This document shows positions 2,811 through 62,826 of a stretch of 64,000 nt of DNA, piece after piece; position 1 is the first letter of the stretch, and each line of letters begins with the position of its first letter. Source of the DNA: Patescibacteria group bacterium. Its GTDB lineage: Bacteria; Patescibacteriota; Patescibacteriia; UBA9934; GWF2-40-263. Location: the NCBI GenBank assembly GCA_004297215.1, contig SCUM01000001.1:219642-283641 (forward strand), given 5' to 3'. Under the pieces are notes generated by a model that saw only the letters and a list, made by a program, of their open reading frames with translations, was not told the origin of the DNA and did not search any database. The translations under genes were made by a program, and so were the position numbers.

Positions 2811-3215
2811 TTAACGCTTGGCCCACTGCGGGGAGCGGCGGGCGCCTTTCTTGCCGTATTTCTTGCGCTCGCGCTTGCGCGCGTCGCGGGTGAGGAAACG
2901 GTTCTTCTTGAGCACCGCGCGGTATTCCGGATTGAAGACGAGCAGGGCGCGGGAGATGCCCAGGCGGATGGCGTCGGCCTGGCCGGTGATGCCGCCGCCT
3001 TCGGTGGCGGCGGTCACGTCGAATTTCCCTTCCATCCCGATCGCGGTGAACGGACGGACCACGTTCTGGCGCAGGATGTCGGTGCCGAAGTACTGGCCCA
3101 GGTCCTTGCCGTTGATGGTGACCTTGCCGGTTCCCCCCGCGATGAGGTGCACGCGCGCCGTGCTGGTCTTGCGGCGGCCGAGGCCGTAGTACTGGTTGTC
3201 TTTCGTTTCTGCCAT
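2811..3215 (-). CDS. rpsI: 30S ribosomal protein S9
   Basis: 134 aa with the typical basic C-terminus ...RKRERKKYGKKGARRSPQWAKR and the GLGRRK N-terminal motif. Confidence 0.95.
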   Translation of the reverse strand: MAETKDNQYYGLGRRKTSTARVHLIAGGTGKVTINGKDLGQYFGTDILRQNVVRPFTAIGMEGKFDVTAATEGGGITGQADAIRLGISRALLVFNPEYRAVLKKNRFLTRDARKRERKKYGKKGARRSPQWAKR

Positions 3216-5332: not shown

Positions 5333-5767
5333 TTACACGCGGCGGGCGCGGCGAGGCCGGCAGCCGTTATGCGGAAGCGGGGTGAGGTCCTTGATGGAAA
5401 GCACGTTGAACAGGTTGGCGTTGAGCGCGCGCACCGCGCTGTCGCGGCCGCTTCCCACCCCTTTCAAGAACACGCTCAGGTCGCGCATGCCATAATCCTT
5501 GATCTTGTCCGCGACGGCCTTGACGATGACGCCGGCCGCGTACGGGGTGGCCTTCTTCGGGCCGCGGAACCCGCATCCACCCGAACTTGCCCAGGCAAGC
5601 GTGTTGCCGTTGAGGTCCGTGATCGTGATGATGGTGTTGTTGAACGTGGCCTGAACGTACGCGCATCCGTGCGGCACGGAGCGGACGGCCTTCGCCTTCT
5701 TCTTGGGCTTCCCGACCGGCTTGGCGCCTTCCTCCGCCACGGCCGTGCCTTTCATCTGTTCGGACAT
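5333..5767 (-). CDS. rpsK: 30S ribosomal protein S11
   Basis: 144 aa with a conserved S11 core. Confidence 0.93.
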   Translation of the reverse strand: MSEQMKGTAVAEEGAKPVGKPKKKAKAVRSVPHGCAYVQATFNNTIITITDLNGNTLAWASSGGCGFRGPKKATPYAAGVIVKAVADKIKDYGMRDLSVFLKGVGSGRDSAVRALNANLFNVLSIKDLTPLPHNGCRPRRARRV

Positions 5768-5774
5768 AGGGAGG

Positions 5775-6161
5775 TTAGGTCTTGGTGAGGATGCGCTTGC
5801 CGCTGCCCGTGGTCTTGCGCACGTTGCCGCGCACGGAGCGGGAGTTGGTGCGGGTGCGCTGGCCGCGCGCCGGCAGGCGCTTGGTGTGGCGCGTGCCGCG
5901 GTAGGAACCGATGTCCTTGAGACGCTTGATGTTGCCGAGCACGTCGCGGCGCAGGTCGCCTTCGAGCTTATAGGTCTTTTCGAGCAGCGTGCGCAGCGCG
6001 TTCACGTCGGCCTCGCTCAAGTCCTTCACGCGGACGTTGCCATCCACCTTGGTCTGCGCAAGCACGTTCTTGGCCGTGGTGTTACCCACCCCGTAGATAT
6101 AGGTGAGGGCGATGACCGTGCGCTTGTTGTTCGGGAGAGTGACTCCGGCGATACGTGCCAT
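5775..6161 (-). CDS. rpsM: 30S ribosomal protein S13
   Basis: 128 aa with an MARIAGV.LP N-terminus. Confidence 0.93.
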
Positions 6162-6699: not shown

Positions 6700-8535
6700 T
6701 TATTTCAGCGATTCATTAGCTGATACGGTCGCCTTGATGCGCCGGACTCCGGAAGCCACTGCCTCCTCCTTTTGGATGGTAAAGGCCTTGAGCTCGCCCG
6801 TATGCTCGACATGGGGGCCGCCGCAAACTTCCGCGCTCGCTACACCCCCTTGCGCTTGGTCCCCGACGAAATACACCTTGATCTTCCCGCCGAGCTCTGC
6901 GTACTTGTCCTCGAACAGGCCGATGGCGCCTCGGCGCTTGGCCTCCTCGATGTCCAGGATCTCATAGCGCACGGGGAGGTCACGTCGGATGGCGTCGTTC
7001 ACGATCTCCTCGACGCGCCTCACCTGCTCCGTTGTCATCTTCTCGGGGTGCGAGAAATCGAACCGCAGCCGCTCGCGCGTGATGTTGCTCCCCTTCTGCG
7101 CGACGTGCGGTCCGAGCACCTCGCGCAACGCCTGATGAAGGAGATGCGTGGCCGTGTGAAGGCGCGCGCACTCCGCGCTGCTGTCCGCGAGCCCGCCGGT
7201 GAATTTCTGTTCGGCGCCGGCGCGCGAGAGGTCCTGATGCTTCCTAAACTCCGCCTCGAACGCGGCACGGTCTACGTTCTGGCCCTTGTCCTTGGCGAGC
7301 TCCTCGGTAAGCTCGAGCGGAAACCCGTAGGTGGAATACAGGACGAACGCGTCGTCGCCCGTGACCTTCCCTTCCCTGGCAAACAGCTTCTCGAACTCCC
7401 GGAGCCCCTTTTCGAGCGTGCGCCCGAACTTCTCCTCCTCCTTGGTGAGCTCGTCGACCAGGCGCGCCTTCTGATCGAAAAGCGCCGGATAGGCCCCGTC
7501 GAAGGTTTCGACGATCACGTCGTACAGCTTGCCGAGGAACGCGCCGTGCAGGCTGAGCGACAGGCCATGGCGCACGCTCCGACGTATCAACCGTCGGAGC
7601 ACGTATCCCTGGTCCTTGTTGGATGGGATGATGCCGTCGGCGATCATGAACATGGCCGTGCGCGCATGGTCGGCCACGATGCGCATGGAACGCCCGGCAT
7701 CGCTCGCATACGCCTTGCCGGACATCTCCTCGAGCGCCTTGGCGATGGGCGCGAACAGGTCGGTCTCGAACACGTTGTCAAAGCCGTTCAGCACCGCGGT
7801 GATGCGCTCAAGGCCCATGCCGGTATCCACGTTGCGCTGGCGCAGCGGCACGAATTTCCCGTCGGCCGTCTTCTCGTACTGCATGAACACGTCGTTCCAG
7901 ATCTCGATGAACCGGCCGCAATCGCAGGCAGGATGGCAGGTGGCACCAAAGGTCGGATCGTGCATTCGGCCCGTGTCATAGTACATCTCGGTGTCCGGGC
8001 CGCACGGGCCGGTGATGCCGGCCGGTCCCCACCAGTTCTGCTTCTTCGGGTACGAAAAGATCCGTTCGCCGAGTTTCGCGTCGATGCCGGCCGTCTTGAA
8101 CGCCGCCTGCCAAAAGCCGATGGACTCGTCGTCGCGCGGCGCGTCCTGGTCGCCTTCGAATACCGAAACGTACAGGCGCTTGGGATCGAGCCCGAGCCAT
8201 TCCTTTCCCGTGAGGAACTCGAAGCTCCAGGCGATCGCTTCTTGCTTGAAGTAGTCGCCCAGCGACCAGTTGCCGAGCATCTCGAAGAAGGTGAGGTGCC
8301 GGTTGTCTCCCACGTCGTCTATGTCGCCAGTGCGCACGCACTTCTGCACGTCTGCAAGTCGCTTTCCCCCTGGATGCGCCTCGCCCAACAGGTACGGCAC
8401 GAGCGGATGCATCCCGGCCGTAGTGAACAGCACCGTGGGATCATTTTCCGGAACGAGCGAAGCCGACGGGATCACGGTGTGGCCCTTGGAACGGAAGAAC
8501 TCGAGGAATTTAGACCGGATCTGGGCAGAGGTCAT
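6700..8535 (-). CDS. alaS: alanine--tRNA ligase (catalytic + tRNA-binding + editing domains; no C-Ala domain)
   Basis: N-terminus MTSAQIRSKFLEFFRSKGH. HxxxH and CxxxH editing motifs are present. 611 aa when started from the internal Met. Confidence 0.9.
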   Translation of the reverse strand: MTSAQIRSKFLEFFRSKGHTVIPSASLVPENDPTVLFTTAGMHPLVPYLLGEAHPGGKRLADVQKCVRTGDIDDVGDNRHLTFFEMLGNWSLGDYFKQEAIAWSFEFLTGKEWLGLDPKRLYVSVFEGDQDAPRDDESIGFWQAAFKTAGIDAKLGERIFSYPKKQNWWGPAGITGPCGPDTEMYYDTGRMHDPTFGATCHPACDCGRFIEIWNDVFMQYEKTADGKFVPLRQRNVDTGMGLERITAVLNGFDNVFETDLFAPIAKALEEMSGKAYASDAGRSMRIVADHARTAMFMIADGIIPSNKDQGYVLRRLIRRSVRHGLSLSLHGAFLGKLYDVIVETFDGAYPALFDQKARLVDELTKEEEKFGRTLEKGLREFEKLFAREGKVTGDDAFVLYSTYGFPLELTEELAKDKGQNVDRAAFEAEFRKHQDLSRAGAEQKFTGGLADSSAECARLHTATHLLHQALREVLGPHVAQKGSNITRERLRFDFSHPEKMTTEQVRRVEEIVNDAIRRDLPVRYEILDIEEAKRRGAIGLFEDKYAELGGKIKVYFVGDQAQGGVASAEVCGGPHVEHTGELKAFTIQKEEAVASGVRRIKATVSANESLK

Positions 8536-8575
8536 ATCGACGGCATCATGCAGGATTCGCGGTCCGGAATCAACT

Positions 8576-10195
8576 TCACGCCGTCCCTTCGGCGGGCGGG
8601 ATGGCCTCCTCGGGGGCGGCCTTGCGCAATACCTTACGACGCATCCCTTCCATGAGGTCGTGAAGCTCGCGCGTGCGCAGGAGCCGACAGATCGCCACGT
8701 ACGCCGCGAGCCCGAGTCCGCCGGCGATGAATCCCTGGCCGAACACGCCGAAGAAGGTGTCAATCGAGAACAGGGAGAGCACGAGCGGCTTGGTGGCCTG
8801 CATCACGGCGGAGGCGACCATGGACGCGAGCGCGATACGGACGAGCGAGGGGAACATGCTCGCCTCGCCCAGCGTCCCCACGCGCCCGCGCAGCGTGGCC
8901 CACAGGAGCGCCGCGTTCGCGAATGACGCGAGCGAGAACGCCATGGCGAGCCCCGTGACCCCGAAGGGGCCGGTGAGCCAGAAGGCGGTCACGATTCCCA
9001 GGATGCCGGACATGATGCCGGCGACAAGCGGAGTCGCCGTGTCGTGCAGGGCGAAGAACGCGCGTGAAAGGAGATACACGAGCGATTGCGGGACGAAAGA
9101 CAACGCGAAGAACGCGAGCGTATCCGCCGTGACGATGGTCGCGGGCCAATCGAACGCCCCGGCGCCTACCACGACGCGCACCACCTGGGCGCGCACGACC
9201 AGGAACAGCGCGGTGAGCGGGACGATGAAGAACAGCATCTGGCGCACGGACGTCGCGAACGTCTCCACGAACCGATCGTCCTCCTTCCTGGCCGCGTGCT
9301 CGGCAAGCGATGGGAACGCGGCGATGGCGAAGGACACGCCCACGATCCCCACCGGGAAGAACTGGATGTTGTAGGCGAACTGGAACACGGTCACCGATCC
9401 TTCGCTGAGCGTGGACGCGATTCCCGCGAGCGCCACGAACGTGAGCTGCGCGACGGCGATCCCGATCATGCGCGGAGCGGTGAGGCGGAACACCTCGCGC
9501 GCGTCCCTGTCCAGGATCGGCCGCTTGAACGCGGGCCGCCATCCGGCGTTCCATACCCCGATCCCCTGCACGAGTGCGTGCAGCAGGGCCCCCAGCACCA
9601 CGCCCCACGCAAGCCCGATGGGCCCGATGGAGCGCGCGAGCGTCACGGCGCCGACGATGATTCCCAGGTTATAGAGCACGGGCGCGCTCGCGTAGAGCAC
9701 GAACCGCTTCATCCCCTGCAAGGCGCTCCCGAACACGATCGAAAACGAAAGGATGGCCTGCGCGAGCAACATCACGCGCATGTGTCCGGCGACCATCAGC
9801 TGCTTCTGCGGCGCGAATCCAGGCGCGACGAGCGCGGCGAGCGGGTTCGCGAGCGCGGCGGCCACGAGCGCGACCAGTCCCATCCCGACCACGACCACGG
9901 CAAGCACGTGCGAGGTGAGCCGCCACGCGCGCTCATGCGCGAGAGGATTCCCCCAGTACGAGGTGAACAACGGGATGAATCCGGCGGACAAGGACCCCAC
10001 CACGATCAGGGCGAACAGGAGGTCCGGCACCTTGAACGCCGCGTAGTACGCGTCGAGCGTGTCCCCGGCGCCGAATTCGCCGGCAAGGACGCGGTCTCGG
10101 ATGAGACCGAGGAAGCGGCTCGCGAACGAAAGGACGCCGACCACGGTGGCGGCGCCCACGATCGATTTTGACTCGGCGTTCAGGAACTTGAGCAC
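8576..10195 (-). CDS. murJ: lipid II flippase MurJ/MviN
   Basis: Polytopic membrane protein with a MurJ-like N-terminus. A GTG start is inferred at 10193-10195, abutting the upstream stop. Confidence 0.75.
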   Translation of the reverse strand: MLKFLNAESKSIVGAATVVGVLSFASRFLGLIRDRVLAGEFGAGDTLDAYYAAFKVPDLLFALIVVGSLSAGFIPLFTSYWGNPLAHERAWRLTSHVLAVVVVGMGLVALVAAALANPLAALVAPGFAPQKQLMVAGHMRVMLLAQAILSFSIVFGSALQGMKRFVLYASAPVLYNLGIIVGAVTLARSIGPIGLAWGVVLGALLHALVQGIGVWNAGWRPAFKRPILDRDAREVFRLTAPRMIGIAVAQLTFVALAGIASTLSEGSVTVFQFAYNIQFFPVGIVGVSFAIAAFPSLAEHAARKEDDRFVETFATSVRQMLFFIVPLTALFLVVRAQVVRVVVGAGAFDWPATIVTADTLAFFALSFVPQSLVYLLSRAFFALHDTATPLVAGIMSGILGIVTAFWLTGPFGVTGLAMAFSLASFANAALLWATLRGRVGTLGEASMFPSLVRIALASMVASAVMQATKPLVLSLFSIDTFFGVFGQGFIAGGLGLAAYVAICRLLRTRELHDLMEGMRRKVLRKAAPEEAIPPAEGTA

Positions 10196-10196
10196 A

Positions 10197-11465
10197 TCAA
10201 TCCTCGCGGCGGACGGAGAGCCTCTTTCCCTTTCCCGTCTCCCCCCGTGGCGCTTCTGGGACCTCCTTCGGACGGATCGCCTCGGGCAGGTCGATCGCCA
10301 GCTCGTAATCCCGTTCCTTATGCACCGCGAAGGTGGTGCGCACGAGGGTGAACAGCCCGCACAGAAGCAGCACGCAGAGCAAGGCCACGGCCCCTTGCAT
10401 GATCGGATTCCCCAGGCTGAAGAACGGCACCTGGACCTGCGTCTCATCCTTGGTCTCCCGACCGTCAGGATCGGTCACGCTAAGGCGGATGCGGTAGCTG
10501 CCGGAGGCGGCGTACGCATGTTCGAGGGCGTATTGGTTTGACGTGACCCCGTCGCCGAAATCCCACTGAAACCGATAGCCGGGCAGGTCGGGAGTGAGCG
10601 CCTTCACGGCGAAACGGTTCCAATCCAGGCGATCCGTGCTGAACACGGCGGAAATCATCCCGACGTCTCCATCGGGCCGTCCTGTGTCCTCTGCCGTCGG
10701 TTCGACGGGGGGTTCCGGCGGCGGCGTTTCTGAAGTGACGGCCGCCTCGACAGGCGCCGGAGCGGATGCGACGGGGGCCGGTTTTGCCGGCGCGGGGGCC
10801 GGGGCGGGCGCGGGGGCTGGAGGCGGCTCCTTCGTCCTGGTCGGATCGGTCGGGAACACGTCGTCCTTGTCGGACACGCCGTCGCCATCGGTATCCTTCT
10901 TGAGCGGGCTGGTGCCGATTTCCCTTTCCACGTCGTCGGAAAGGCCGTCATCGTCGTCGTCCTCGTCGCAGGCGTCCCCCTGCCCGTCCTTATCCGTGTC
11001 CTTCTGGTCCGCGTTCTTCTTGGAAACGCAATTGTCCTTCTCGTCCACGACCGCGTCGTGGTCCTGGTCCGCGATCGGGGTGAACAGCCCGGTGATGGCG
11101 ACGTCATTGCCGGCGTTCGTATCCTGCGGATCGGTCCCCTTGATCTCGGCGCGGATGTTGAACGACCCCGCCGGGACGGTGAAGTCCACGAACACGTCCT
11201 CGGGCACGCCGTCGGCCCGCACCGATATCACCTGGCTGTCGCCGACCGGGATGGACCCCTGGAAGAACGACACGTATCCGCTCATGTCCTCCGTCCCCAC
11301 GTTGCGGACCTGCGCATACAACCGGATGCGATCCCCGGCCACCAGCGTCTTCACGGAGAAGGAAATGTCGCTCGATCGGATGCTCAAATCGTTCGTCGCA
11401 CAGAGGGCGGCGACGGGGGCGAGGGTCAGCGCGAGGATGATGAGGAAACGGCGGAACATAGCCAC
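10197..11465 (-). CDS. cell-surface protein: signal peptide, CARDB-like N-domain, thrombospondin type-3 Ca-binding Asp repeats, PA-rich linker, PKD domain, C-terminal TM anchor
   Basis: DxDxDGxxD repeats, a PAPAPAPAPA stretch and the WDFGDG...Y.I.L.V.D PKD signature in a 422-aa ORF. Confidence 0.7.
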   Translation of the reverse strand: MAMFRRFLIILALTLAPVAALCATNDLSIRSSDISFSVKTLVAGDRIRLYAQVRNVGTEDMSGYVSFFQGSIPVGDSQVISVRADGVPEDVFVDFTVPAGSFNIRAEIKGTDPQDTNAGNDVAITGLFTPIADQDHDAVVDEKDNCVSKKNADQKDTDKDGQGDACDEDDDDDGLSDDVEREIGTSPLKKDTDGDGVSDKDDVFPTDPTRTKEPPPAPAPAPAPAPAKPAPVASAPAPVEAAVTSETPPPEPPVEPTAEDTGRPDGDVGMISAVFSTDRLDWNRFAVKALTPDLPGYRFQWDFGDGVTSNQYALEHAYAASGSYRIRLSVTDPDGRETKDETQVQVPFFSLGNPIMQGAVALLCVLLLCGLFTLVRTTFAVHKERDYELAIDLPEAIRPKEVPEAPRGETGKGKRLSVRRED

Positions 11466-12797: not shown

Positions 12798-13277
12798 CTA
12801 GCCGATTTTGCGTCCAAGGACAAACAACGCGACCCCTGTCGCCACGGCCACGTTGAGCGACCGTTTGGCGCCAGGAAGCGGGATTTCCACGGTCGCATCG
12901 CAAGCCGCAACGACTTCTTTGGGGACGCCTTCCACCTCGCTGCCCAGGATCAGGGCGAGACCGGGAGATTGCTTCGTCCCCTTCGACAAGCTCAGGGTCC
13001 TCGCAAAGACAGATAGGTCAACTGCCCCTTCGCGATTGTCGAGCGCGACGACCGTCATCCCCTTTCCCTTCAATTCCACGATGAGCGCCAGCACGTCTTC
13101 CCGCTTTTCCCACGGCATACGGTCCTGACTTCCCAAAGCCGTCTTCGCGATCTCATTCCTTGGCGGAGTCCCGGTGTATCCGGTAAGGTACAATTTCTCC
13201 ACGCCAAAGGCATCGGCGCTCCGAAAGATGGAACCGACGTTATGGAGGCTGCGGATGTCGTGGGCGATGAGGAACAT
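12798..13277 (-). CDS. SPOUT (SpoU/TrmH-family) RNA 2'-O-methyltransferase, TrmL-like
   Basis: 159 aa with SpoU motifs (..LILGSE..GV.., E.PLPGA..SLNVA.A). Confidence 0.65.
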   Translation of the reverse strand: MFLIAHDIRSLHNVGSIFRSADAFGVEKLYLTGYTGTPPRNEIAKTALGSQDRMPWEKREDVLALIVELKGKGMTVVALDNREGAVDLSVFARTLSLSKGTKQSPGLALILGSEVEGVPKEVVAACDATVEIPLPGAKRSLNVAVATGVALFVLGRKIG

Positions 13278-13330
13278 GGGGAAAGGTTTGAAGGGTTGTA
13301 AGGGTTGTAAAGGTGTAGGATGTCTTTTTT

Positions 13331-14695
13331 GTGAAATTATATCAACCGATAAGCGGCAAGATCGAACGTCTCGCGCATGACGGCAGCGGGGAGATTTCGC
13401 GTGCCGAAGGAAAGCCGTATTTCATCTACAACACGATTCCTGGCGAGACGATCACGGCGCTCCCGTTCAAGCGGGCGAAGGAAGGCGTGCGCGCGGAACT
13501 TCAGTCCGTGGCCGAAGCGTCGCTGGATCGCGTCAAACCGACCTGCCCGTATGCCGGCACCTGCGGCGGATGCAAATGGCAGCACATGGGCTACGAGCGC
13601 CAGCTCGCCGAAAAGCTTGCTGGCATCCGTGACGCCTTCGAGAAGGCCGGCCTTACATGTCCCGTCTCTTCCGTGATGCCCTGCCCGGACCCGCTGTACT
13701 ACCGCAATCGGATGGATTACGTGTTCGGTCGCAACGGGGAGCTCGGGCTCAAGCAGCCCAACAAGTGGTGGGCCACGCTCGATCTGGAAACCTGTTATCT
13801 CCTTTCTGAAGAGTCCGTCGAGGTGACGAGACGCGTCCGTGAATGGACACGAAAGACGGGTCTGCCCTTCTGGGACGCGAAGACACAAACGGGATTCTTC
13901 CGCTACCTCGTCATACGCGAGGGAAAGAACACGGGCGAGCGCATGGTAATGATCGTCACCGCTCGACCTGAAGCTCCCCAAGCTCATCAAGCTCTTCAAG
14001 AACTCCCCGCTCTTCTCGACAATCTGGCGACGTCCGTCATCTGGGGCATCAACCCGCATCTGACGGACCTTTCGATCGCCCACGAGATCATCCCGCTCAA
14101 AGGCAACCCGTGGATCCACGAACGGGTGAACGGCGTCTCCTACAAGATCACGCCCAACGCCTTTTTCCAGACCAACACGGTGATGGCCGCGAAGCTGCAA
14201 GACACGGTCCGTGATTTCTGCGGCGACCTGTCGGGCAAGACGCTGCTTGATCTGTACTGCGGGTCAGGATTCTTCTCGCTGGCGCTGGCGCGCGACCCCC
14301 TCATGCTCCCCCTTTCCAAGGGGGAGGTAGCGCGAGTGATCGGCATCGAGCTGTCGGCTGAGGCTATTGAGTGTGCGAAGGAGAATGCGGTCGCGAACGG
14401 GATAACTGCCGAATATTTCGCCTCATCCGCCGAAGCGTTCGACTGGAAAGGCTACGCGCCGGACGTGGTGATCCTCGACCCACCGCGCGCCGGGATGCAC
14501 CCGAAGGTAATCGAAACGATCCTTGAGGCCGCGCCTCCAGTCCTTGTGTACGTATCCTGCAGTTATACGCGTTTTATCCAGGAATTCACGAAGCTCGGCG
14601 ATAAGTACGTCCTCGACTCCGCCACCGCCCTCGACCTATTCCCGCAGACGCCGCACGTGGAGTGCGTGTTCAAACTCGTCCGTCGTCAATCATAA
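13331..14695 (+). CDS. rlmD: 23S rRNA (uracil-5-)-methyltransferase RlmD/RumA (TRAM + 4Fe-4S + SAM MTase)
   Basis: CPYAGTCGGCKWQ cluster, DPPRAG, and the C-terminal DLFPQTPHVE motif. Confidence 0.88.
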   Translation: MKLYQPISGKIERLAHDGSGEISRAEGKPYFIYNTIPGETITALPFKRAKEGVRAELQSVAEASLDRVKPTCPYAGTCGGCKWQHMGYERQLAEKLAGIRDAFEKAGLTCPVSSVMPCPDPLYYRNRMDYVFGRNGELGLKQPNKWWATLDLETCYLLSEESVEVTRRVREWTRKTGLPFWDAKTQTGFFRYLVIREGKNTGERMVMIVTARPEAPQAHQALQELPALLDNLATSVIWGINPHLTDLSIAHEIIPLKGNPWIHERVNGVSYKITPNAFFQTNTVMAAKLQDTVRDFCGDLSGKTLLDLYCGSGFFSLALARDPLMLPLSKGEVARVIGIELSAEAIECAKENAVANGITAEYFASSAEAFDWKGYAPDVVILDPPRAGMHPKVIETILEAAPPVLVYVSCSYTRFIQEFTKLGDKYVLDSATALDLFPQTPHVECVFKLVRRQS

Positions 14696-14943
14696 ATGGA
14701 ATGGTCGCCGATCGAATGGAAAAGTGCATGATGCCGGTCGATGAGCCGAAAGATGATCCGATAACGAAAATTAATCGAGAACGACCAATATTCCTGGAGT
14801 CTGCCGGTCAATTTATGCGTCTTGAGTGTAGGCTCGAACGGGTCAACCAAGAAACGCTCGACGCGGTCTTTCACGATGGAACGAAGCGATGCCGGCAGCT
14901 TCTTCGCTTCGCGCGCGAACCTGGAGGTATAGCTGACTTCCAC
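14686..14943 (-). CDS. type II toxin, RelE/ParE superfamily
   Basis: C-terminal ..YRIIFRLIDRHHALFHSIGDHSIYD is typical of RelE/ParE. A GTG start is inferred 5 nt after the antitoxin stop. Confidence 0.7.
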   Translation of the reverse strand: MEVSYTSRFAREAKKLPASLRSIVKDRVERFLVDPFEPTLKTHKLTGRLQEYWSFSINFRYRIIFRLIDRHHALFHSIGDHSIYD

Positions 14944-14948
14944 AGTCC

Positions 14949-15167
14949 CTAGGCCCAAAGTTCATCGATCTTTTTCAGCTTCTTCGCCTTGCCTGCCGTG
15001 AATTCCTTCTCGCCTTCCTGCAGGTCAACCAGCAACCGTCCGGCCATCCAATCACGGAGCAGGTGCCTGAAAAACTCGCTTTTCGAAGCATAGTGCTTCC
15101 CCTTCACCTCCCGGTCCACGACCGCGTTCAGTTCCGCGGGCAAAGAGATGTTCACGACGTTGCGCAT
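14949..15167 (-). CDS. type II antitoxin, ribbon-helix-helix (ParD/CopG-like)
   Basis: VNISLPAELNAVVD...ASKSEFFRHLLRDW RHH signature. Lies upstream of and adjacent to the toxin. Confidence 0.7.
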   Translation of the reverse strand: MRNVVNISLPAELNAVVDREVKGKHYASKSEFFRHLLRDWMAGRLLVDLQEGEKEFTAGKAKKLKKIDELWA

Positions 15168-15175
15168 ATCCAAGG

Positions 15176-15196
15176 CTGTAATAATATGTATTACAG
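15176..15196. promoter_or_regulatory. perfect 21-bp palindrome CTGTAATAATATGTATTACAG just upstream of the antitoxin start; candidate TA autoregulatory operator / -10 region
   Basis: Inverted repeat seen directly. Confidence 0.45.
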
Positions 15197-15197
15197 T

Positions 15198-15293
15198 ATG
15201 TCATCGGGCAGGCTCCGTCAAATCGCCGCCACCCTCGACCTGTTCCCGAACACGCCGCATGTAGAGGGCGCGTTCAAGCTGGTGAGGAAATAA
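15198..15293 (+). pseudogene. degenerate duplicate of the rlmD 3' end (encodes ..IAATLDLFPNTPHVEGAFKLVRK*)
   Basis: About 80% nucleotide identity to 14618-14695, and protein-level identity to the RlmD C-terminus. Confidence 0.6.
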
Positions 15294-15336
15294 AAAAACA
15301 GCTCCCGAGTCGGGAAGCCGTTGAGACAGTCGGACG

Positions 15337-16161
15337 TCAAAGAGGTGATTCAACCCCATCGCGAACCCGAATTACTTTGCCACCAGGCAAATGGCAGAAG
15401 GCAGGGTAGACGTCGAAGGACCAATGTATTTGGCCGTTCTCCTCGTCATGCTCGAATTCCACTGTCGGAAACGTGTCTCCTACGTCCCCATAAGGACCGT
15501 AAATCTTTCCATCAGCCACTATAGTCACGTGAATGCCTTCTCTCAAAAAGATAAAGGTGTGACCGGCAAATGTCCGTACCGATTTAATGTGATTGTCCGG
15601 ATGGAACGGCCCAATCCTCCAGCCGTCTCCGATAAGGAATAATTCATTCGGCTCGAGGATCGCAGCGATGATGCCGTATTCTTGATACAACGTGATCGAA
15701 TCGCGTCTGAACGGTTCGCTCAATGTCCCGTTCGTGATGAGGAACGATTGTCCGCCGCGTTGCACAATGAATCCGTTGCCCCACCAACCGTCTGGCAGGA
15801 CTTTCTCGACATCGAACGGCACGCCATTCACTTCCCCCGTCACCACCGTGGCGACGGCCCCATCGGGATACGCCTTCAGGAAGCGGTCTCCGTCGGCAAG
15901 CAGCAGATATTCGTCATTCTCCTTTTTGGACGGCCTGCCACGTGATTTCGCAAGGATGCCGAGCATCTCATCAGGCATCTCGAGGAGCGCCTGAATATGC
16001 GCCGGCGTGATTCGGCCAGCGTTGAACTGCTGGAGCAGTTCGATGATCTGGTTTGGAATGGACGCTTTCGCCACGATGCACCTCTTTACCGTTCGGAAGC
16101 GCGCAGGTGTTCCCACGTTCGCTTCTCCGGGCATGGCATGACCACACGACGGATGTCGCAC
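15337..16161 (-). CDS. hypothetical protein (start uncertain), lower-GC (~50%) gene adjacent to TA cassette
   Basis: 274-aa ORF with no recognisable family. Confidence 0.5.
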   Translation of the reverse strand: MRHPSCGHAMPGEANVGTPARFRTVKRCIVAKASIPNQIIELLQQFNAGRITPAHIQALLEMPDEMLGILAKSRGRPSKKENDEYLLLADGDRFLKAYPDGAVATVVTGEVNGVPFDVEKVLPDGWWGNGFIVQRGGQSFLITNGTLSEPFRRDSITLYQEYGIIAAILEPNELFLIGDGWRIGPFHPDNHIKSVRTFAGHTFIFLREGIHVTIVADGKIYGPYGDVGDTFPTVEFEHDEENGQIHWSFDVYPAFCHLPGGKVIRVRDGVESPL

Positions 16162-16235
16162 GGGTCCAGTTGGACACGCGTAAAATAGCTCAATCTTGCC
16201 AAAATGTCAATCCTCTGCTAGCCTACGCGTAATTT

Positions 16236-17105
16236 ATGGCTGAAACGCAGAAGAAATCCGGGTTCGCCGTGATGGTGGGGCGCTCCAACGTGGGGAAATC
16301 CACGATCTTGAACGAACTCGTTGGCTCCAAGGTGGCCATCACCACGCCAAAGCCGCAAACCACCCGCCTGCCCGTTCAGGGCATCGTTTCGCGTCCGGAA
16401 GGACAGGTGGTGTTCGTGGACACGCCGGGGATCATCCAGAAGTCCCGCGATTCCCTCACCCAGCGGATGACCAAGTCGGCAAAGGACTCGCTGCGCGACA
16501 TCGACGTGGTGCTGTATGTCGTGGACCCCACCCGTCACATCGGGGACGAGGAAAAGGCCGTGATGCGCATGCTCGAGGACGTGACGAAACCCAAGTTCCT
16601 CGTGATCAACAAGATGGACCTGCCCGAGGGCGAACGGGAATTCCAGGACTATTACGACGACCTTCAGGGGCTCTACGACGGGACGTTCGAGGTATCCGGC
16701 AAGACCGGCAAGGGCCTTGATGCGCTGCTCGCGGCGGTGTTCGAGAAGCTGCCGGAGGGCGAACCGTATTATCCGGAAGGCCAGCTCACCAACATGCCGA
16801 GCGAGCGCTGGGTGGCCGAGCTCATCCGCGAGAAGCTGTTCCTGCGCCTACGCGAGGAAGTGCCTTACTCCACGCACGTGGAGGTGGAAGAGCTGGAGCG
16901 CCGCGAGGACGGGACGATGTACGTCAAGGCGACCGTCTACACCACGGAGGAGCGCTACAAGCGCATGATCATCGGCGCGCGCGGCCAGGGCATCAAGGAG
17001 ATCGGAAGCAGCACGCGGCATGAGCTGGAGGCCGTGATGCAGACGAAAGTGTTCCTGGACCTGAACGTGGACACGGACCCGCATTGGGTGGACAGGATGG
17101 AGTGA
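16236..17105 (+). CDS. era: GTPase Era
   Basis: GRSNVGKSTILN G1 motif, DTPG, NKMD, and a KH domain at the C-terminus. Confidence 0.92.
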   Translation: MAETQKKSGFAVMVGRSNVGKSTILNELVGSKVAITTPKPQTTRLPVQGIVSRPEGQVVFVDTPGIIQKSRDSLTQRMTKSAKDSLRDIDVVLYVVDPTRHIGDEEKAVMRMLEDVTKPKFLVINKMDLPEGEREFQDYYDDLQGLYDGTFEVSGKTGKGLDALLAAVFEKLPEGEPYYPEGQLTNMPSERWVAELIREKLFLRLREEVPYSTHVEVEELERREDGTMYVKATVYTTEERYKRMIIGARGQGIKEIGSSTRHELEAVMQTKVFLDLNVDTDPHWVDRME

Positions 17106-17222
17106 GCGAAAACTTGAAACGTGAAAACTTGAAATCTTGAAAGGAAACGTGAAAACTTTTGAAAAGGCGAAACGGATAAACCGCTTCGTCTTTTTTCATC
17201 GTTTCAAAGTTTCAAGTTTTTC
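17106..17222. terminator. AT-rich intergenic palindromic repeat structure (GAAAACTTGAAA x3 direct + inverted copy) between convergent era and pilD; probable bidirectional terminator
   Basis: Direct and inverted repeats seen in sequence. Confidence 0.5.
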
Positions 17223-18012
17223 ACCCAAAAAACCCCATGTACCACGTGAGGATCGGTCGTCCGAACAGCAGCATCACGAGCGTTGCCAGGGTAAGGAACG
17301 TGCCGAACGGGACCTGCGTCTGCCAGGCCGCCTTCTCGCGCTGGATGAGGAAGAGCCCCACGACGGCACCCAGGGCATAGGCGATGAACAGGGCGCCCAG
17401 CGCGTCCTTCCAGCCGAGCATGAATCCCATGAGCACGCCCAGGCGGATGTCCCCGCCGCCGATCCAGCGGCCTTTGGAGAACAGGTATTGGGCCAGGAAG
17501 AATCCGCCCAGGATCAGCCCTCCCGACAGGAGATCGTACGGATGGAAGGTGCCAACCCACACGTTGAAGGCGAACGCGATCGCCATGGCCGGGACCGTGA
17601 ACCGATCCAGGATGAGGTAATACTTGAGGTCGTAGACGAACAGGAGCATCAGGGAGGTGACGAACGCCAGGTCGCGCAGGAAGAACGCCACCGACTGCAT
17701 CGGGGAAAGCTCCGGCGGCAAGCCGAATCCGTACATGAACCGGAGGTAAAAGACGAAAAACAGCAGCCCGGTGCCGAATTCCACCAGCGGGTACTGCCAG
17801 GAGATGCGCTCGCCGCAGCTTCGGCACTTGCCGCGCAGCGCGATGAAGCTCAAGACCGGGATCAGGTCCTTTGGGGCGATTTGCGCCTGGCAGGACAGGC
17901 AACGCGAACGCCCGCCAAAAGAACTCCCGGCGTTCGTGCGCAGGATGACCACGTTGAGGAAGCTCCCGACCGAGAGCCCGATGACGAAGGCCAAGAGCGC
18001 GCCCATCATCAT
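17221..18012 (-). CDS. pilD: type IV prepilin peptidase (A24 family)
   Basis: MMMGALLAFVIGLSVGSFLNVVILR, a Cys pair and polytopic TMs. Internal start abuts the upstream stop. Confidence 0.8.
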   Translation of the reverse strand: MMMGALLAFVIGLSVGSFLNVVILRTNAGSSFGGRSRCLSCQAQIAPKDLIPVLSFIALRGKCRSCGERISWQYPLVEFGTGLLFFVFYLRFMYGFGLPPELSPMQSVAFFLRDLAFVTSLMLLFVYDLKYYLILDRFTVPAMAIAFAFNVWVGTFHPYDLLSGGLILGGFFLAQYLFSKGRWIGGGDIRLGVLMGFMLGWKDALGALFIAYALGAVVGLFLIQREKAAWQTQVPFGTFLTLATLVMLLFGRPILTWYMGFFG

Positions 18013-18014
18013 AG

Positions 18015-18506
18015 CTAGAGGCGGCAGGCGCCGGCCGAGAGCCCGTCCGGACTCGCGCAGTTGAGGCCCTTCGCGAGGCCGGCCTCGGGCCAATTCCCTT
18101 CGAGCTCGAATTGGATGCGGTACGTGGAATCTTCCCGGATGGAGAGGTAGCACAACGCATCCGCCTCGCCGGCGCAGGAGGCCAGGCCATCGAGCCCCTT
18201 GACGACCGTGGCCGGGACCCTGCGCAGGAACGTGGCGCCGGCGCAGGAGGCGGCGAACCCCTCTTCGCCCAAACATCCGGTCTCAAGCACGCCCAGCGCG
18301 ATCCCTTCCCCTCCCGGCGGGTAGGCGTTCTTCTGGTTGAAGTAATTCTCCATGGCCGCCTGGACCTGGCGAACGTTAGAAAGACGCACGGCGTCCCGCG
18401 CCTGCGCGCGAGCCGCGTTCACCTCGACCGCGGCGAACGCGCCGATGAGGCCGATCGCCAGCAGGCCGGCCAGGATCTGGATGATCTTGCGCTGTCGTTC
18501 CTCCAT
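18015..18506 (-). CDS. pilin-like protein with non-canonical N-terminus (no G/FxxxE prepilin motif) and C-terminal Cys pairs
   Basis: Hydrophobic N-helix followed by ARDAVRLSNVRQVQAAMENYF...YP, a pilin-like signature. Start at the internal Met. Confidence 0.45.
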   Translation of the reverse strand: MEERQRKIIQILAGLLAIGLIGAFAAVEVNAARAQARDAVRLSNVRQVQAAMENYFNQKNAYPPGGEGIALGVLETGCLGEEGFAASCAGATFLRRVPATVVKGLDGLASCAGEADALCYLSIREDSTYRIQFELEGNWPEAGLAKGLNCASPDGLSAGACRL

Positions 18507-18527
18507 AGGGTCTGGATGAAGAATGTG

Positions 18528-18581
18528 GGATGAAGGATGTAGGATTTCTTTGCGTATCCTACATCCTACATCCTTCATCCT
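18528..18581. promoter_or_regulatory. 19-bp perfect inverted repeat GGGATGAAGGATGTAGGAT / ATCCTACATCCTTCATCC(C) with heptamer duplications, between response-regulator stop and pilin start
   Basis: Seen directly. It overlaps the last codons of the response regulator. Confidence 0.45.
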
Positions 18582-18969
18582 ACATTCTAACCCGTTCCTT
18601 TACGAGCCGCTCCACGTGCGCGCGCGTTTCCGTCGGCGTGACATGGCCCTTGAGCAGGTATCCGTCCGTGCCGCAGGCAAGCGTCTCGCGCACATGCTCG
18701 CGGTCCCCGCGCGCCGTGAGCGCGACCACGACGATGCCGGAGCTGGTCGGGTCTTCCTTGAGCGCGCGGACGAGCGCGAACGCCTCCGGCACCGTATCGG
18801 CGTCGAGGAGCATCGCGTCCGGAGCCTTCTTCGCGACGAGCTTGCGCGCCTCCTTCGCGTCCGGCGCGAGGCGCGCGACCCACCGGGCCGCCTCGAACCG
18901 CCGCGCGTAGATGCCGGCGAACGTCGCGTCCGGATCAACGATGAGCAGCTGGCGCTTGCGGGCAGGCAC
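18580..18969 (-). CDS. stand-alone response regulator receiver (CheY-like) protein
   Basis: 129 aa with LLIVDPD, MLLDAD, VVALTARGD and the GTDGYLLKG receiver motifs. Confidence 0.7.
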   Translation of the reverse strand: MPARKRQLLIVDPDATFAGIYARRFEAARWVARLAPDAKEARKLVAKKAPDAMLLDADTVPEAFALVRALKEDPTSSGIVVVALTARGDREHVRETLACGTDGYLLKGHVTPTETRAHVERLVKERVRM

Positions 18970-18970
18970 A

Positions 18971-20083
18971 CTACTCGATGTCGCGCATCGCGAGCCCGAT
19001 CGACACGGCCATGCGCGGTCCGATCTCGTCGAGCACCGGACGCAGGTCCGCCGGGTAGGACACCCGCGCCCACGGGTCGCCGCGATAGACGTTCAGGTTG
19101 AGCGAGGCGGAGAGGAACTCGGGCACGCCCGGGAGATGCGCGCTGCCGCCGGTCACCACCACCTTTTCCACCTTCTTGAACTCCGTGAGCTCCATGCGCG
19201 CGTACAGCTGGAGCGCGTACTGGATCTCGTGGAGGATGGGTCCCATCGCAGCCTCCACCGCGGGCGGGAGCTTGCCTCCGGGCATGGCCGGCTGGTTCCC
19301 CAGGTCGGTCTTGATCTGTTCGGCCTCCGATTCGGGCACCGACATCTGCTCCATGATCTTCTTCGTGACGGACGATCCTCCCACGTTGATGGACCTGGTG
19401 AGGAACGGGATGCCTTTCTCGACCACGGTGATGTTCGTGCGCCCGAACCCGATGTCGAGGATGAGCACCGCGCTCTTGTCCTTGCCGATCAGGCTGCGGA
19501 TGAGGGCGAAGGACTCGGTATCGATCGCCTGGAGCTCGAGCTTGGCCGTGCGGAAGATCTCGATGTACTTCTGCACGAGCGTCTTGGCCGCGCCCGTGAC
19601 GAGCACGCGCACGTAGTCGGACGGCTTGCCAGCCGGAACCGTTTGTTCTTTTCCTGCGGCCTTCGTGCCTGAGGCCTTCCCCGCCTGCAGAGGATCGATG
19701 AACGTCGAATAGGTGATCATCTCCGAGATGGGAAGCGGGGTGAGCTTGGCCACCTGCGCGTCGATGAGCGGTTTCATCTCCTTCTCGTCCTTGCGCCGCG
19801 GCACCGCCACGATCGTCGAAAAGATCGAGGACAGCGGGAGCGCCGCCATGGCCTTGTTCGTCTTCACCCCGGCGCGCTTGCACAGTTCGGCAAGCGTCTC
19901 CCCGGCGCCCTTGACGTCCTCGAACGGCGAAACCACGGCCTCTCCCGGCTTGCGCTCGGAATAGCCGTAGGTCAGCAGCGTGGCGCGGCCCTTCTCGTTG
20001 GAAAGCTCCACCACCTTGACCCCCCCGGCGCCGACGTCCACGCCGAGGAAACTTTGCTTTTTCGGAGCGCCGAACAGGGCCAT
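18971..20083 (-). CDS. pilM: type IV pilus assembly protein PilM (actin-like ATPase)
   Basis: SFLGVDVGAGGVKVVELS N-terminus and the actin fold ~350 aa. Confidence 0.75.
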   Translation of the reverse strand: MALFGAPKKQSFLGVDVGAGGVKVVELSNEKGRATLLTYGYSERKPGEAVVSPFEDVKGAGETLAELCKRAGVKTNKAMAALPLSSIFSTIVAVPRRKDEKEMKPLIDAQVAKLTPLPISEMITYSTFIDPLQAGKASGTKAAGKEQTVPAGKPSDYVRVLVTGAAKTLVQKYIEIFRTAKLELQAIDTESFALIRSLIGKDKSAVLILDIGFGRTNITVVEKGIPFLTRSINVGGSSVTKKIMEQMSVPESEAEQIKTDLGNQPAMPGGKLPPAVEAAMGPILHEIQYALQLYARMELTEFKKVEKVVVTGGSAHLPGVPEFLSASLNLNVYRGDPWARVSYPADLRPVLDEIGPRMAVSIGLAMRDIE

Positions 20084-20107
20084 AACCGGCTCAGTATACC
20101 ACAACGG

Positions 20108-41311: not shown

Positions 41312-41791
41312 TCACAGCAATCCGCGGAGTTTCTTGATCACGCGATGCGTGGCCATCTTGAGCGACGTCGCGGGCCGGCCGAGCAATTCGGCCATGTCCG
41401 CGTATCCATACCCCTCAAGGTACTTGAGCGTAACAAGGCGTCGTTCCTCGGGTTCCAGCGCCGAAAAGGCCCTGGCCACCAGCCGCTGGTCGTCGGTCCG
41501 CTGCTCCAGGCCGCGACCGTCCTGTCCCACGAGCAGGTCGCAGACGTCATCGAGGTCCACATGCATGCGCCGGTCGCGGTACCAGTTGGCGAGGTGGTTA
41601 TGCGCGATGCGGTAGATCCAGGCCGAGCGGGACACGGCCTCGTCGTAGCGGTCGAACGCCGCGAGCGCCTTCAGGAAGATCTCGCTCGTCAGGTCCTCGG
41701 CGGTCGGCTCGTCCGGGACGCGCAAACGGACGTATCGGTAGATACGATCGATGTTCGCGCAATAGAAGCGGTCAAATGCCCTGCGATCCAT
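41312..41791 (-). CDS. ECF-type RNA polymerase sigma factor
   Basis: Sigma70 region 2 (..YRIAHNHLANWYR) and region 4 (LKYLEGYGYADMAELLG). Confidence 0.8.
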   Translation of the reverse strand: MDRRAFDRFYCANIDRIYRYVRLRVPDEPTAEDLTSEIFLKALAAFDRYDEAVSRSAWIYRIAHNHLANWYRDRRMHVDLDDVCDLLVGQDGRGLEQRTDDQRLVARAFSALEPEERRLVTLKYLEGYGYADMAELLGRPATSLKMATHRVIKKLRGLL

Positions 41792-41796
41792 GGATG

Positions 41797-62817: not shown

Positions 62818-62826
62818 ATGATGAGA

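Follow-up and report, generated by a model that had tools for sequence, protein, structure and literature searches.

The window, a 64,000-nucleotide stretch of DNA from an ultra-small, groundwater-type bacterium of Candidatus Uhrbacteria, carries an rlmD gene whose 3′ end is present twice, with a two-gene toxin-antitoxin (TA) operon between the copies. The locus is composed of the following features:

13331 to 14695, plus strand: rlmD (23S rRNA m5U1939 methyltransferase, RumA family), 454 aa, ending in KLVRRQS-stop
14620 to 14683, plus strand: working (upstream) copy of the rlmD-end repeat, encoding ATALDLFPQTPHVECVFKLVR
14684 to 14695, plus strand: substitute rlmD tail, Arg-Gln-Ser-stop, read from the sequence and also present in Hainich contig L088
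14686 to 14943, minus strand: predicted toxin of the RelE/ParE superfamily (RelE-like), 85 aa, with weak HigB, YafQ, and YoeB matches
14949 to 15167, minus strand: predicted ribbon-helix-helix (RHH) antitoxin, 72 aa, RHH_1 at 23.5 bits (cut-off 20.5)
15176 to 15196, no strand assigned: candidate operator, an 8-nt inverted repeat (CTGTAATA and TATTACAG) with a 5-nt spacer
15193 to 15221, minus strand: predicted TA promoter, with −35 box TTGACG (15221-15216), 17-nt spacer, and −10 box TACTGT (15198-15193)
15222 to 15293, plus strand: native rlmD terminus, displaced downstream and now a pseudogene fragment; it encodes IAATLDLFPNTPHVEGAFKLVRK followed by a stop codon, and the strict repeat is 15224-15283
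15297 to 15322, minus strand: predicted intrinsic terminator of the convergent orphan gene, from a terminator scan (fold −16.5 kcal/mol, z = −2.4)
15337 to 16074, minus strand: orphan gene, probably 245 aa; the longest open reading frame, to 16161, has 274 aa
16236 to 17105, plus strand: era (GTPase Era; NF000908, 309 bits), the ancestral downstream neighbor of rlmD

The rlmD product scores 236 bits against TIGR00479 (cut-off 183.6), also matches Pfam tRNA_U5-meth_tr, and is 100% identical to NCBI protein P0001. RlmD proteins of this clade typically end in KLVRK-stop, whereas the working gene of the window ends in KLVRRQS-stop, and P0001 is the sole carrier of the RRQS-stop tail among the 120 best rlmD homologues. 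From 14686 onward, the tail is the antisense of the toxin stop codon and the last three toxin codons, such that the two convergent genes overlap by 10 bp. The effect on the enzyme is likely to be minor, with the conserved C-terminal motif kept and three residues replacing one, and we predict that rlmD with its substituted tail is a functional gene.

Measured from the −35 box to the toxin stop codon, the TA cassette spans 536 bp (14686-15221). The gene calls made for both proteins in an earlier note on this DNA are sound: the 85-aa length of the toxin is that of all its homologues and of the NCBI call, and the antitoxin exceeds the RHH_1 cut-off. The antitoxin reading frame ends 5 nt ahead of the toxin start in the same operon, and the pair is kept in 75 loci. 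The C-terminus of the toxin (FHSIGDHSIYD-stop) is intact, and this motif is invariant in the subfamily. The same note called the pair ParD/ParE-type. For the toxin, RelE-like families (HigB, YafQ, and YoeB) fit no less well than ParE does. Matches of the window toxin to ParE_toxin, YoeB, HigB-like, and YafQ occur at E of about 1e-3, all below Pfam cut-offs, and RelE_StbE (TIGR02385) is matched at 25.5 bits, below its cut-off of 27.9. Among 20 aligned members of the toxin family, HigB-like is matched by all 20 and YafQ by 19 at E ≤ 0.01, and ParE_toxin matches 10. A profile of the family matches HigB, RelK, and YoeB structures in the PDB (E of 1e-3 to 1e-2), all of which are RelE-like mRNases, and the NCBI name for toxin homologue P0121 is RelE/StbE family. 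The evidence leans toward a toxin nearer to RelE-like mRNases than to ParE, one that appears to represent a Patescibacteria-specific subfamily with weak matches to every curated toxin family.

The candidate operator lies across the −10 box and the probable start of transcription, and its motif TGTAATA..TATTACA is found again ahead of homologous cassettes whose surroundings are unrelated. It had been described as a perfect 21-bp palindrome; its 8-nt arms (15176-15183 and 15189-15196) are indeed perfect, but the 5-nt spacer is non-palindromic. Assignment of the promoter is a comparative inference and was not listed by a generic promoter scan; its TTGAC(A/G)-spacer-TAnnnT layout is kept in the Hainich locus and in loci L082, L083, L086, and L089. 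We take its −35 box as the probable outer limit of the cassette, and the displaced rlmD end adjoins the promoter directly upstream. Local GC content is 0.51-0.57 in the TA genes, 0.49-0.59 in the orphan gene, and about 0.6 in the flanks. The operon is likely a minimal, self-regulated type II TA system with an RHH antitoxin, a predicted RelE-like toxin, and a putative operator. Like RelBE, HigBA, and YafQ-DinJ, it places the antitoxin first, uses the RHH fold, encodes a RelE-superfamily toxin of ~85 aa, and has an inverted repeat over the promoter. Unlike those systems, its toxin matches curated families weakly and carries the invariant C-terminus.

The rlmD-end segment at 14620-14679 matches 15224-15283 at 49 of 60 positions in an ungapped alignment (82%). 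In 30 first-order-Markov randomizations of 13000-17500, the best 60-nt match gave 32-36 identities. The repeat claimed previously at ~80% identity therefore exists, and proper alignment of the two copies places it clearly above chance. It is the only gene-end duplication within the 64-kb window. The remnant translates as AATLDLFPNTPHVEGAFKLVRK followed by a stop codon, retains the KLVRK-stop ending, and is also recovered when the rlmD tail is used as a tblastn query. The spacer that follows the remnant can be aligned with that of the closest relative (L081, 81%), where rlmD ends in KLVRK-stop and is followed by a 40-nt spacer and a convergent gene, without TA genes. Because both the ending and the native downstream context match TA-free L081, the downstream copy is the displaced native terminus of rlmD, consistent with its earlier reading as a remnant, while the upstream copy runs into the cassette.

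Other relatives give the same polarity. In three Uhrbacteria loci (L001, L002, and L005), era directly follows rlmD, and rlmD-era synteny extends to L081 and to Hainich contig L087. The direct rlmD-era arrangement and the TA-free L081 locus argue for insertion of the TA pair at the rlmD 3′ end, as the note had held, and the pair is far from universally conserved at this site.

Not every gene between rlmD and era appears to belong to the insertion. The orphan gene had been given as 274 aa and as part of the acquisition. A reading frame of this length is open, but the likely start, a GTG at 16074 with GAGG ahead of it, yields 245 aa, with L081 homology from residue 6; the NCBI call is 265 aa. 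The protein begins with a helical segment and continues in beta-hairpin repeats; its N-terminal 73 aa are 34% identical to a 382-aa protein in the same slot in L081. Pfam, NCBIfam, and PADLOC gave no match, database searches returned the protein itself and one weak repeat match, and the AF2 model is unusable (pLDDT 45). Because a homologue occupies this slot in TA-free L081 and the TA-bearing Hainich locus has no orphan gene, the gene is a resident of the window/L081 lineage and lies outside the TA insertion, contrary to the earlier proposal. The U-run of its terminator overlaps the stop codon of the remnant, which likewise places this region in native context, outside the cassette.

The same layout is present in Hainich groundwater contigs L087 and L088, including rlmD ending in KLVRRQS-stop, the 10-bp overlap, the promoter, and the operator. 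The Hainich toxin is the closest homologue of the window toxin (73% aa identity), and the antitoxins are 79% identical. There, the second rlmD-end copy abuts the −35 box, is identical to its own rlmD at 41 of 41 positions, and is directly followed by era. The rlmD/toxin junction is nucleotide-identical in the window and Hainich, and nucleotide identity is 74-76% across the TA genes and 82.5% in the rlmD 3′ region. The Hainich repeat starts ~9 nt later in rlmD than the window repeat, such that a shared origin requires a later deletion, or else the two events were separate. Furthermore, the presence of the TA pair and of the orphan gene conflict on any tree of the window, L081, and Hainich, which calls for at least one loss or transfer. 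The insertion nevertheless seems old enough to be shared with the Hainich relative, by descent or by homologous transfer. Spread at the rlmD site is narrow, since Hainich apart, the rlmD C-terminal motif was found at 0 of 80 metagenome TA loci and a junction-pattern search was also empty.

Flanking direct repeats of adjacent sequence occur at 18 of 70 homologous TA loci, mostly abutting the cassette. Controls gave 0 of 88 for shifted pseudo-cassettes and 1 of 70 for mismatched flank pairs. The repeats are 21-125 nt long and unrelated in sequence between loci, and the duplicated targets include the 3′ end of fusA/EF-G (125 nt), the 3′ end of YkuD, terminators, and a promoter-like segment. The boundaries between repeat and operon are precise at many loci, falling at the −35 box on one side and a few nucleotides past the toxin stop on the other. 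Campbell-type bracketing, wherein the downstream copy continues into native sequence, is found in the window, at Hainich, at L110 (fusA), and at L097 (ykuD). These patterns suggest that ordinary recombination spreads the cassettes of this TA family, which bring no integrase themselves. Consistent with the earlier statement that the cassette has no integrase, the interval 14686-15221 contains the TA pair and no further gene, integrase or recombinase, and its neighbors are rlmD, the orphan gene, and era. The comparison with att sites fares poorly, because the repeats at homologous cassettes derive from quite different targets of 21-125 nt and have no common att core.

Two kinds of known element were considered and set aside. 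The cassette ends lack an inverted repeat or a sequence conserved across loci, and the repeats range from 21 to 125 nt in length, unlike the ends of an insertion sequence, MITE, or transposon. Unlike in an integron gene cassette, the sequence past the toxin stop is a copy of a neighboring gene 3′ end or terminator, and no attC-like element was seen. No Rfam or other structured element was found at the cassette, and no intI was seen.

We consider a single-crossover (Campbell-type) insertion-duplication, mediated by a donor rlmD 3′ segment, to be the best explanation of the locus, with a probability of roughly 60%. Under this model, incoming DNA, probably circularized, would carry the TA operon together with an rlmD 3′ segment, and one homologous crossover between this segment and the resident rlmD end would leave two copies of a ~65-75-nt segment around the cassette. 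The upstream copy would complete the working gene, with Arg-Gln-Ser-stop replacing Lys-stop, and the downstream copy would be the old terminus with its native stop and context, now decaying as a pseudogene fragment. The model presupposes that the TA operon already lay beside an rlmD end. It brings together the repeat, the polarity of the insertion, the native downstream copy, the same architecture in a second lineage, and the flanking repeats observed across the family; the circular intermediate, RecA dependence, and DNA uptake as the entry route are steps that we infer. In experiments with Escherichia coli, single crossovers with circular molecules duplicated 109-950 bp of the homologous locus, while deletions are the usual outcome of homology-facilitated illegitimate recombination (PMC3240628). 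Patescibacteria reportedly retain genes for homologous recombination and machinery for DNA uptake (PMC12455944). Acquisition by recombination with a homologous donor segment, as first proposed in the note, thus remains the best-fitting account, given this precedent and the allele-like fusA copies described below. Random circularization does not predict that repeats end exactly at the operon limits, and this precision may reflect an unknown activity or only deletion pressure.

A different origin for the repeat, which we judge rather unlikely, is that illegitimate insertion of the TA genes duplicated ~65-85 nt of the target in situ, through staggered breaks, template switching, or microhomology-mediated repair, and brought in no donor rlmD sequence. 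The copies would at first have been identical, with the working copy held by purifying selection and the other left to decay. Several observations fit. By our own count, 5 non-synonymous and 4 synonymous changes occur in the remnant alone, and they introduce an N and a G that none of 120 homologues has at the two positions concerned; the 5 derived changes private to the working copy (relative to L081) are 4 synonymous and 1 non-synonymous. The window copies differ from each other at 7 synonymous and 5 non-synonymous codons (P = 0.18 against duplication plus decay), a pattern that, for the window alone, would fit a donor-borne segment and in-situ duplication with decay equally well. Variable repeat length and targets of any kind, including terminators and a promoter-like segment, are also what such a process should give. 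Across the family, however, the evidence runs the other way. At L110, 11 codons differ synonymously between the fusA copies and only 1 non-synonymously, a pattern at odds with duplication and neutral decay of one copy (P = 1.2e-4), and therefore both evolved as functional alleles, which rejects in-situ duplication for at least one family member. The YkuD repeat and an rpoC-like repeat each have two differences, all of them synonymous, and the terminator copies at L095 differ in their stem sequences in a manner that we read by eye as compensatory. We know of no insertion mechanism that gives 20-125-nt target duplications, which counts against in-situ origin as well. Experimental duplications of this kind come from single crossovers with circles (PMC3240628).

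Two further accounts appear less probable. A finished rlmD-TA-remnant block might have moved between Uhrbacteria by double crossover in conserved flanks, such that the duplication was made once, by an unspecified event, and the window inherited or imported it. We regard this as improbable for the window, even though the identical junction, the similar order of divergence in the TA genes and rlmD 3′ region, and the conflict between TA and orphan gene presence all accord with it, and minimal mobile elements of Neisseria are defined in like manner (PMC3082526). In the window, both the tail of the remnant and the gene downstream of it are those of the window's own lineage, which would force the right crossover inside the short remnant. 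In addition, the origin of the duplication is left unexplained, and a two-armed replacement therefore complements a single-crossover insertion more than it competes with it. It is very improbable that the locus is what deletions left of an element whose integrase targeted the rlmD/rumA 3′ end and whose attP carried a replacement terminus. Elements that restore the end of their target gene are common, and the perfect 41-nt repeat at Hainich would suit one. [quoted passage not shown] Against this, the cassette lacks an integrase in the window, in the Hainich contigs, and at any homologous locus examined; viral contigs yielded no member of the toxin family; and the window copies share no identical stretch longer than 10 nt. 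The interval between repeats is exactly the minimal operon in at least 14 different contexts whose repeats are unrelated in sequence and length, and it is implausible that larger elements decayed to these limits independently each time.

We rate single-crossover TA insertion at a gene end as a variant of processes already known. As in Campbell insertion-duplication, direct repeats bracket the insert, with an upstream copy that completes the gene and runs on into insert DNA and a downstream copy in which the native end persists. Here, the event would be natural rather than the work of a suicide plasmid, the homology is 21-125 nt, and the cargo is a 0.54-kb TA operon. In chromosomal integrons, small promoter-containing TA operons likewise form discrete cassettes, but the repeats flanking the present cassettes are coding 3′ ends or terminators of a neighboring gene. 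At Rhs, CDI, and T6SS effector-immunity loci, incoming DNA that shares homology with a gene's conserved portion also delivers a new 3′ end with a linked toxin/immunity-type module and displaces the old 3′ end as an orphan (PMC5361080). What is pushed aside there is the gene's own variable toxic tip, and the exchange diversifies the toxin, whereas here the end of a housekeeping gene is merely substituted and the TA operon is separate cargo in either orientation. Neisseria minimal mobile elements are similarly small cassettes without mobility genes that are exchanged by homologous recombination after DNA uptake (PMC3082526), but they lie between two different conserved genes without duplication, whereas both flanks here are one gene end. 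Streptococcal ICEs and prophages at rumA share the target family, the 3′-end position, and the bounding direct repeats (PMC5633684; PMC7168690), but are tens of kilobases long with serine integrases and short fixed att sites, whereas the TA cassette has neither a recombinase nor an att sequence fixed across sites.

More tentatively, the whole TA family might be a recombinase-free mobile cassette, a possibility about which we remain doubtful. The minimal operon would travel as a small circle or a repeat-flanked fragment with a surrogate 3′ end of a conserved gene, enter cells through the DNA-uptake machinery, and be integrated by host homologous recombination at the end of that gene, which stays active, with the flanking repeats permitting re-excision. 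If this is true, then the rlmD locus of the window would be an old, fixed copy and that of Hainich (41/41, zero differences) a recently active one, and addiction would aid persistence of the cassette after each integration.

TA modules are highly mobile, and movement of chromosomal copies outside plasmids, phages, transposons, and integrons is rarely visible. The locus preserves an insertion scar, in which the old gene terminus has been displaced and a new tail is read from the toxin antisense strand, and a similar scar lies at various housekeeping-gene ends in about one-quarter of related loci. Short in-frame duplicates of core-gene ends in metagenome-assembled genomes should not be discarded as assembly noise, since they can help to date insertions and establish their orientation. 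If the pattern holds, selfish two-gene modules may colonize the streamlined genomes of ultra-small bacteria by means of nothing more than host recombination and short homology to conserved genes.

The 3′ end of rlmD occurs twice in the window, on either side of an operon encoding an RHH antitoxin and a RelE-like toxin (TA operon). The locus comprises the following features.

12798-13277, minus strand, SpoU methylase gene
13331-14695, plus strand, rlmD
14686-14943, minus strand, toxin gene (85 aa)
14949-15167, minus strand, RHH antitoxin gene (72 aa)
15222-15293, plus strand, second copy of the rlmD end (the remnant)
15297-15322, minus strand, terminator
15337-16074, minus strand, orphan gene
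16236-17105, plus strand, era

An earlier note had claimed this duplicate, and alignment bears it out: 49 of 60 ungapped positions are identical between the copies (82%), compared to a best match of at most 36 of 60 in 30 first-order-Markov randomisations of the 4.5-kb region. Translated in frame, the remnant gives AATLDLFPNTPHVEGAFKLVRK followed by a stop. Given these values, and because the copies are just 82% identical, chance and assembly artefact are both rejected, the latter also by a like layout in two independent assemblies of Hainich groundwater. No second gene-end duplication was found across the 64-kb window. Two further proposals were rejected as well. The 3′ end of rlmD lacks the unusual identity expected of a recombination tract in sliding-window comparisons with the relatives L081 and L001, and the resemblance of AGTATGTCATCG upstream of the remnant to AGTATGACATCG of L081 was discounted because ACAGTA is simply the −10 box TACTGT read from the opposite strand, and this box is found again in other members of the cassette family, L086 among them.

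The host belongs to Candidatus Uhrbacteria (Patescibacteria/CPR), its nearest genomic relatives are Uhrbacteria MAGs, and one NCBI protein matches its RlmD at 100% identity. In three Uhrbacteria relatives (L001, with 73% RlmD identity, L002, and L005), rlmD is directly followed by era. In the closest relative (L081, 81%), which carries no TA operon, rlmD ends in KLVRK and a stop, and a 40-nt spacer separates it from a convergent gene for a 382-aa protein, beyond which lies era. Close RlmD homologues usually end in ECVFKLVRK(A), and within the set of 120 best homologues the RRQS ending is unique to the window protein. The last codons of this upstream, working copy (CGT CAA TCA TAA) are the antisense of the conserved IYD-stop end of the toxin gene. 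The remnant, in contrast, retains the KLVRK end and the A-run that follows the stop, and its spacer can be aligned with that of L081. Judged from these sequences, the remnant is the native rlmD terminus in displaced form, and the reading frame of the working gene extends into the insert. The intrinsic terminator of the orphan gene overlaps the stop codon of the remnant, a further sign that the remnant belongs to the native context. With L081 as outgroup, the working copy has four synonymous and one non-synonymous private changes, compared to four and five for the remnant, and the remnant carries N and G at positions where these residues are absent from the 120 homologues. By these counts, the remnant is decaying.

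Other observations concern rlmD and its junction with era in relatives. In another Uhrbacteria MAG (L004:3845-7850), several genes, including those for 292-aa and 581-aa proteins, lie between rlmD and era; judging by this locus, the junction appears to accept insertions repeatedly. Close to the end of contig L091, an inverted repeat (AAATGCGACATA ... TATGTCGCAT) follows an unrelated, longer rlmD whose 558-aa product has the tail KLIRRNGVLF (5677-5803); this may mark a further insertion at the end of an rlmD gene. The L091 gene also has the AAACTCGT codons in the absence of a TA operon, so these codons were dropped as a cassette-linked marker. In L001, the closest GTDB relative, era precedes a 662-aa protein with C-terminal CxxC...CxxC that looks TnpB/Cas12-like, and a 253-aa ORF there looks Cas1-like (8340-11436). 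The least conserved stretch of the window rlmD (48% amino acid identity to L081) is a variable insertion loop in the methyltransferase domain (codons ~316-345, 14280-14340; DPLMLPLSKGEVA), at which L081 has a different, longer insert and L001 has none.

The limits of the insert follow from the promoter plan that homologous operons share in unrelated contexts: TTGAC(A/G), about 17 nt, TAnnnT, and then TGTAATA..TATTACA, a putative operator. This plan places the −35 box of the window operon at 15216-15221, right against the remnant, so that the insert amounts to a 536-bp minimal operon. The coordinates given previously for both genes are correct, and the operator candidate, described as a perfect 21-bp palindrome, proved to consist of two perfectly inverted 8-nt arms separated by a 5-nt spacer. 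The toxin, assigned to ParD/ParE in the note, probably belongs to the RelE/ParE superfamily, where RelE-like mRNase families (HigB, YafQ, and YoeB) match it no worse than ParE does. The toxin's own family matches all fall under curated cut-offs; the antitoxin scores above the RHH_1 cut-off. The operon itself is an ordinary further member of a known TA type.

The orphan ORF of 274 aa probably starts at GTG 16074, giving a 245-aa protein. From this GTG onward it resembles an L081 protein (34% over 73 aa, E = 3e-8). Family and profile searches gave zero matches, very large database searches returned only the protein itself and one weak repeat match, and a single-sequence AF2 model was unusable (pLDDT 45). 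L081, which has no TA operon, carries the homologue in the same slot, and the gene is missing from the Hainich locus, where a TA operon is present. Thus, the orphan gene is a separate, lineage-specific resident outside the cassette, and the earlier reading of it as part of the island is rejected.

The closest toxin homologue (73% amino acid identity) is encoded on two short Hainich contigs. In one (L088), the rlmD 3′ end reads HVECVFKLVRRQS and a stop and converges on the toxin gene with a window-like 10-bp overlap. In the other (L087), the region upstream of the antitoxin gene carries a window-like promoter and putative operator, and then a second rlmD-end copy abutting the −35 box, with era directly after. 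The Hainich repeat is identical at 41 of 41 positions, and the tail of its remnant (LRLTRRPN) is strongly diverged. DNA identity between the window and Hainich is 74-76% for the TA genes and 82.5% for the rlmD 3′ region, and the window, L081, and Hainich are about equally distant from one another. Because the TA operon is shared by the window and Hainich and the orphan gene by the window and L081, the two conflict on any tree, and at least one loss or transfer is required. If the two repeats recombined, rlmD would regain a native appearance, such as it has in L081. The exact junction pattern had no match in metagenome contigs, the rlmD C-terminal motif was present at 0 of 80 metagenome loci with toxin homologues, a viral-contig scan revealed no toxin relative, and an rlmD-like peptide near L111 is a coincidence in non-coding DNA.

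Flanking repeats recur among relatives of the operon. We compared 270 nt upstream of the promoter region with 270 nt after the toxin stop, counting direct repeats scoring at least 15, at 70 loci with an adjacent antitoxin-toxin pair drawn from 80 metagenome loci, earlier contexts, the window, and a Hainich composite.

Flank comparisons with a direct repeat scoring at least 15
Real cassettes: 18/70 loci
Pseudo-cassettes shifted by 1 kb: 0/88 (maximum 14.5)
Mismatched flank pairs: 1/70 (otherwise highest 11.5)

Redundancy among the loci leaves about 14 distinct contexts. The one match among mismatched pairs probably joins flanks of two of the homologous loci L089/L090/L092. The repeats mostly lie right next to the operon, with the upstream copy often stopping 0-7 nt short of the −35 box and the downstream copy, in most loci, beginning 4-12 nt past the toxin stop.

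Repeats flanking TA cassettes on other contigs
L110, 2093-2217 and 2766-2890: last 125 nt of fusA/EF-G (Pfam)
L097, 2215-2245 and 2770-2800: last 31 nt of a YkuD L,D-transpeptidase gene
L142, 2165-2194 and 2768-2797: fragment encoding GRLIPVGTGY
L163, 515-606 and 1188-1279: direct repeats
L089/L090/L092, L095, L099: terminator hairpins
L141: promoter-like segment

We take the L142 fragment to resemble the RpoC C-terminus. Neither copy is joined to a full gene (2165-2830), and a 16S rRNA gene (Rfam match 3018-3122) follows shortly downstream of this TA locus. Further repeat-flanked cassettes are present on the Patescibacteria contigs L111, L132, L166, L127, L143, and L147. The 43-nt repeat of L111 (TTGCGGTTAATAACAGAATCTGGCT..., 250-292 and 836-878) is seen again, reversed, downstream of the L127 operon (~680-725) and may be a dispersed element; it has no Rfam or tRNA match, and no ncRNA or tRNA targets were found at the flanking repeats. 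In the window and Hainich, cassette and target gene are convergent; in L110 and L097, they run in the same direction.

How the duplicate arose can be judged from differences between copies. Duplication in situ at rlmD, with no donor-borne rlmD segment, would be compatible with the 7:5 ratio of synonymous to non-synonymous codon differences in the window. At fusA, however, 11 of 12 differing codons are synonymous, which rejects an identical duplication followed by neutral decay of one copy (P = 1.2e-4), and we consider an in-situ origin unlikely for rlmD. The fusA copies therefore evolved as functional alleles, one of them in another genome; every difference in the YkuD and rpoC-like repeats is likewise synonymous. 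In Escherichia coli, homology-facilitated illegitimate recombination generally yields deletions, and partial duplications of a homologous locus were obtained when a circular molecule and the chromosome underwent a single crossover (PMC3240628). The arrangement observed here (gene end reading into the insert, insert, second copy reading into native DNA) is exactly that predicted for a single-crossover product. Patescibacteria are reported to keep recombination genes and DNA-uptake systems (PMC12455944). Taken together, these points favour Campbell-type integration, wherein incoming DNA carrying an rlmD 3′ segment beside the TA operon would undergo a single crossover with the resident rlmD end, and the reverse reaction between the repeats would lose the cassette precisely. 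The recombination idea of the earlier note was thus largely right, and its att-site analogy is not supported. Random circularisation would not predict limits as strikingly precise as those of the cassette, and no circular form was observed.

The region adjoining era (17221-20104) contains three type IV pilus-related ORFs read by eye, namely a prepilin peptidase, whose L081 homologue matches Peptidase_A24, a putative pilin, and a PilM-like ORF. Such genes would fit reports of DNA-uptake pili in Patescibacteria. The stretch separating era from the convergent prepilin-peptidase gene (17109-17220) carries three copies of GAAACGTGAAAACTT and a 20-22-nt inverted repeat (AAAACTTGAAA... / ...TTTCAAGTTTT) around a hairpin, which together probably form a bidirectional terminator. 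Elsewhere, about eight copies of a 15-nt tandem repeat, AGGCGATAAGGCCGC, lie at 62811-62945, with a related degenerate pair 21 kb upstream (41782-41841).

A limited literature search found no description of a TA cassette flanked by one gene's duplicated end. The process resembles laboratory insertion-duplication, the 3′-end displacement at Rhs, CDI, and T6SS effector loci (PMC5361080), and Neisseria minimal mobile elements (PMC3082526); streptococcal ICE and prophage integration into rumA is similar in target only (PMC5633684, PMC7168690). Unlike all four systems, the insert carries a TA operon as its only cargo, has neither a recombinase nor a fixed att site, and is flanked on both sides by copies of one housekeeping-gene end. 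Recurrent displacement of gene ends by a recombinase-free TA cassette is a new form of known processes.
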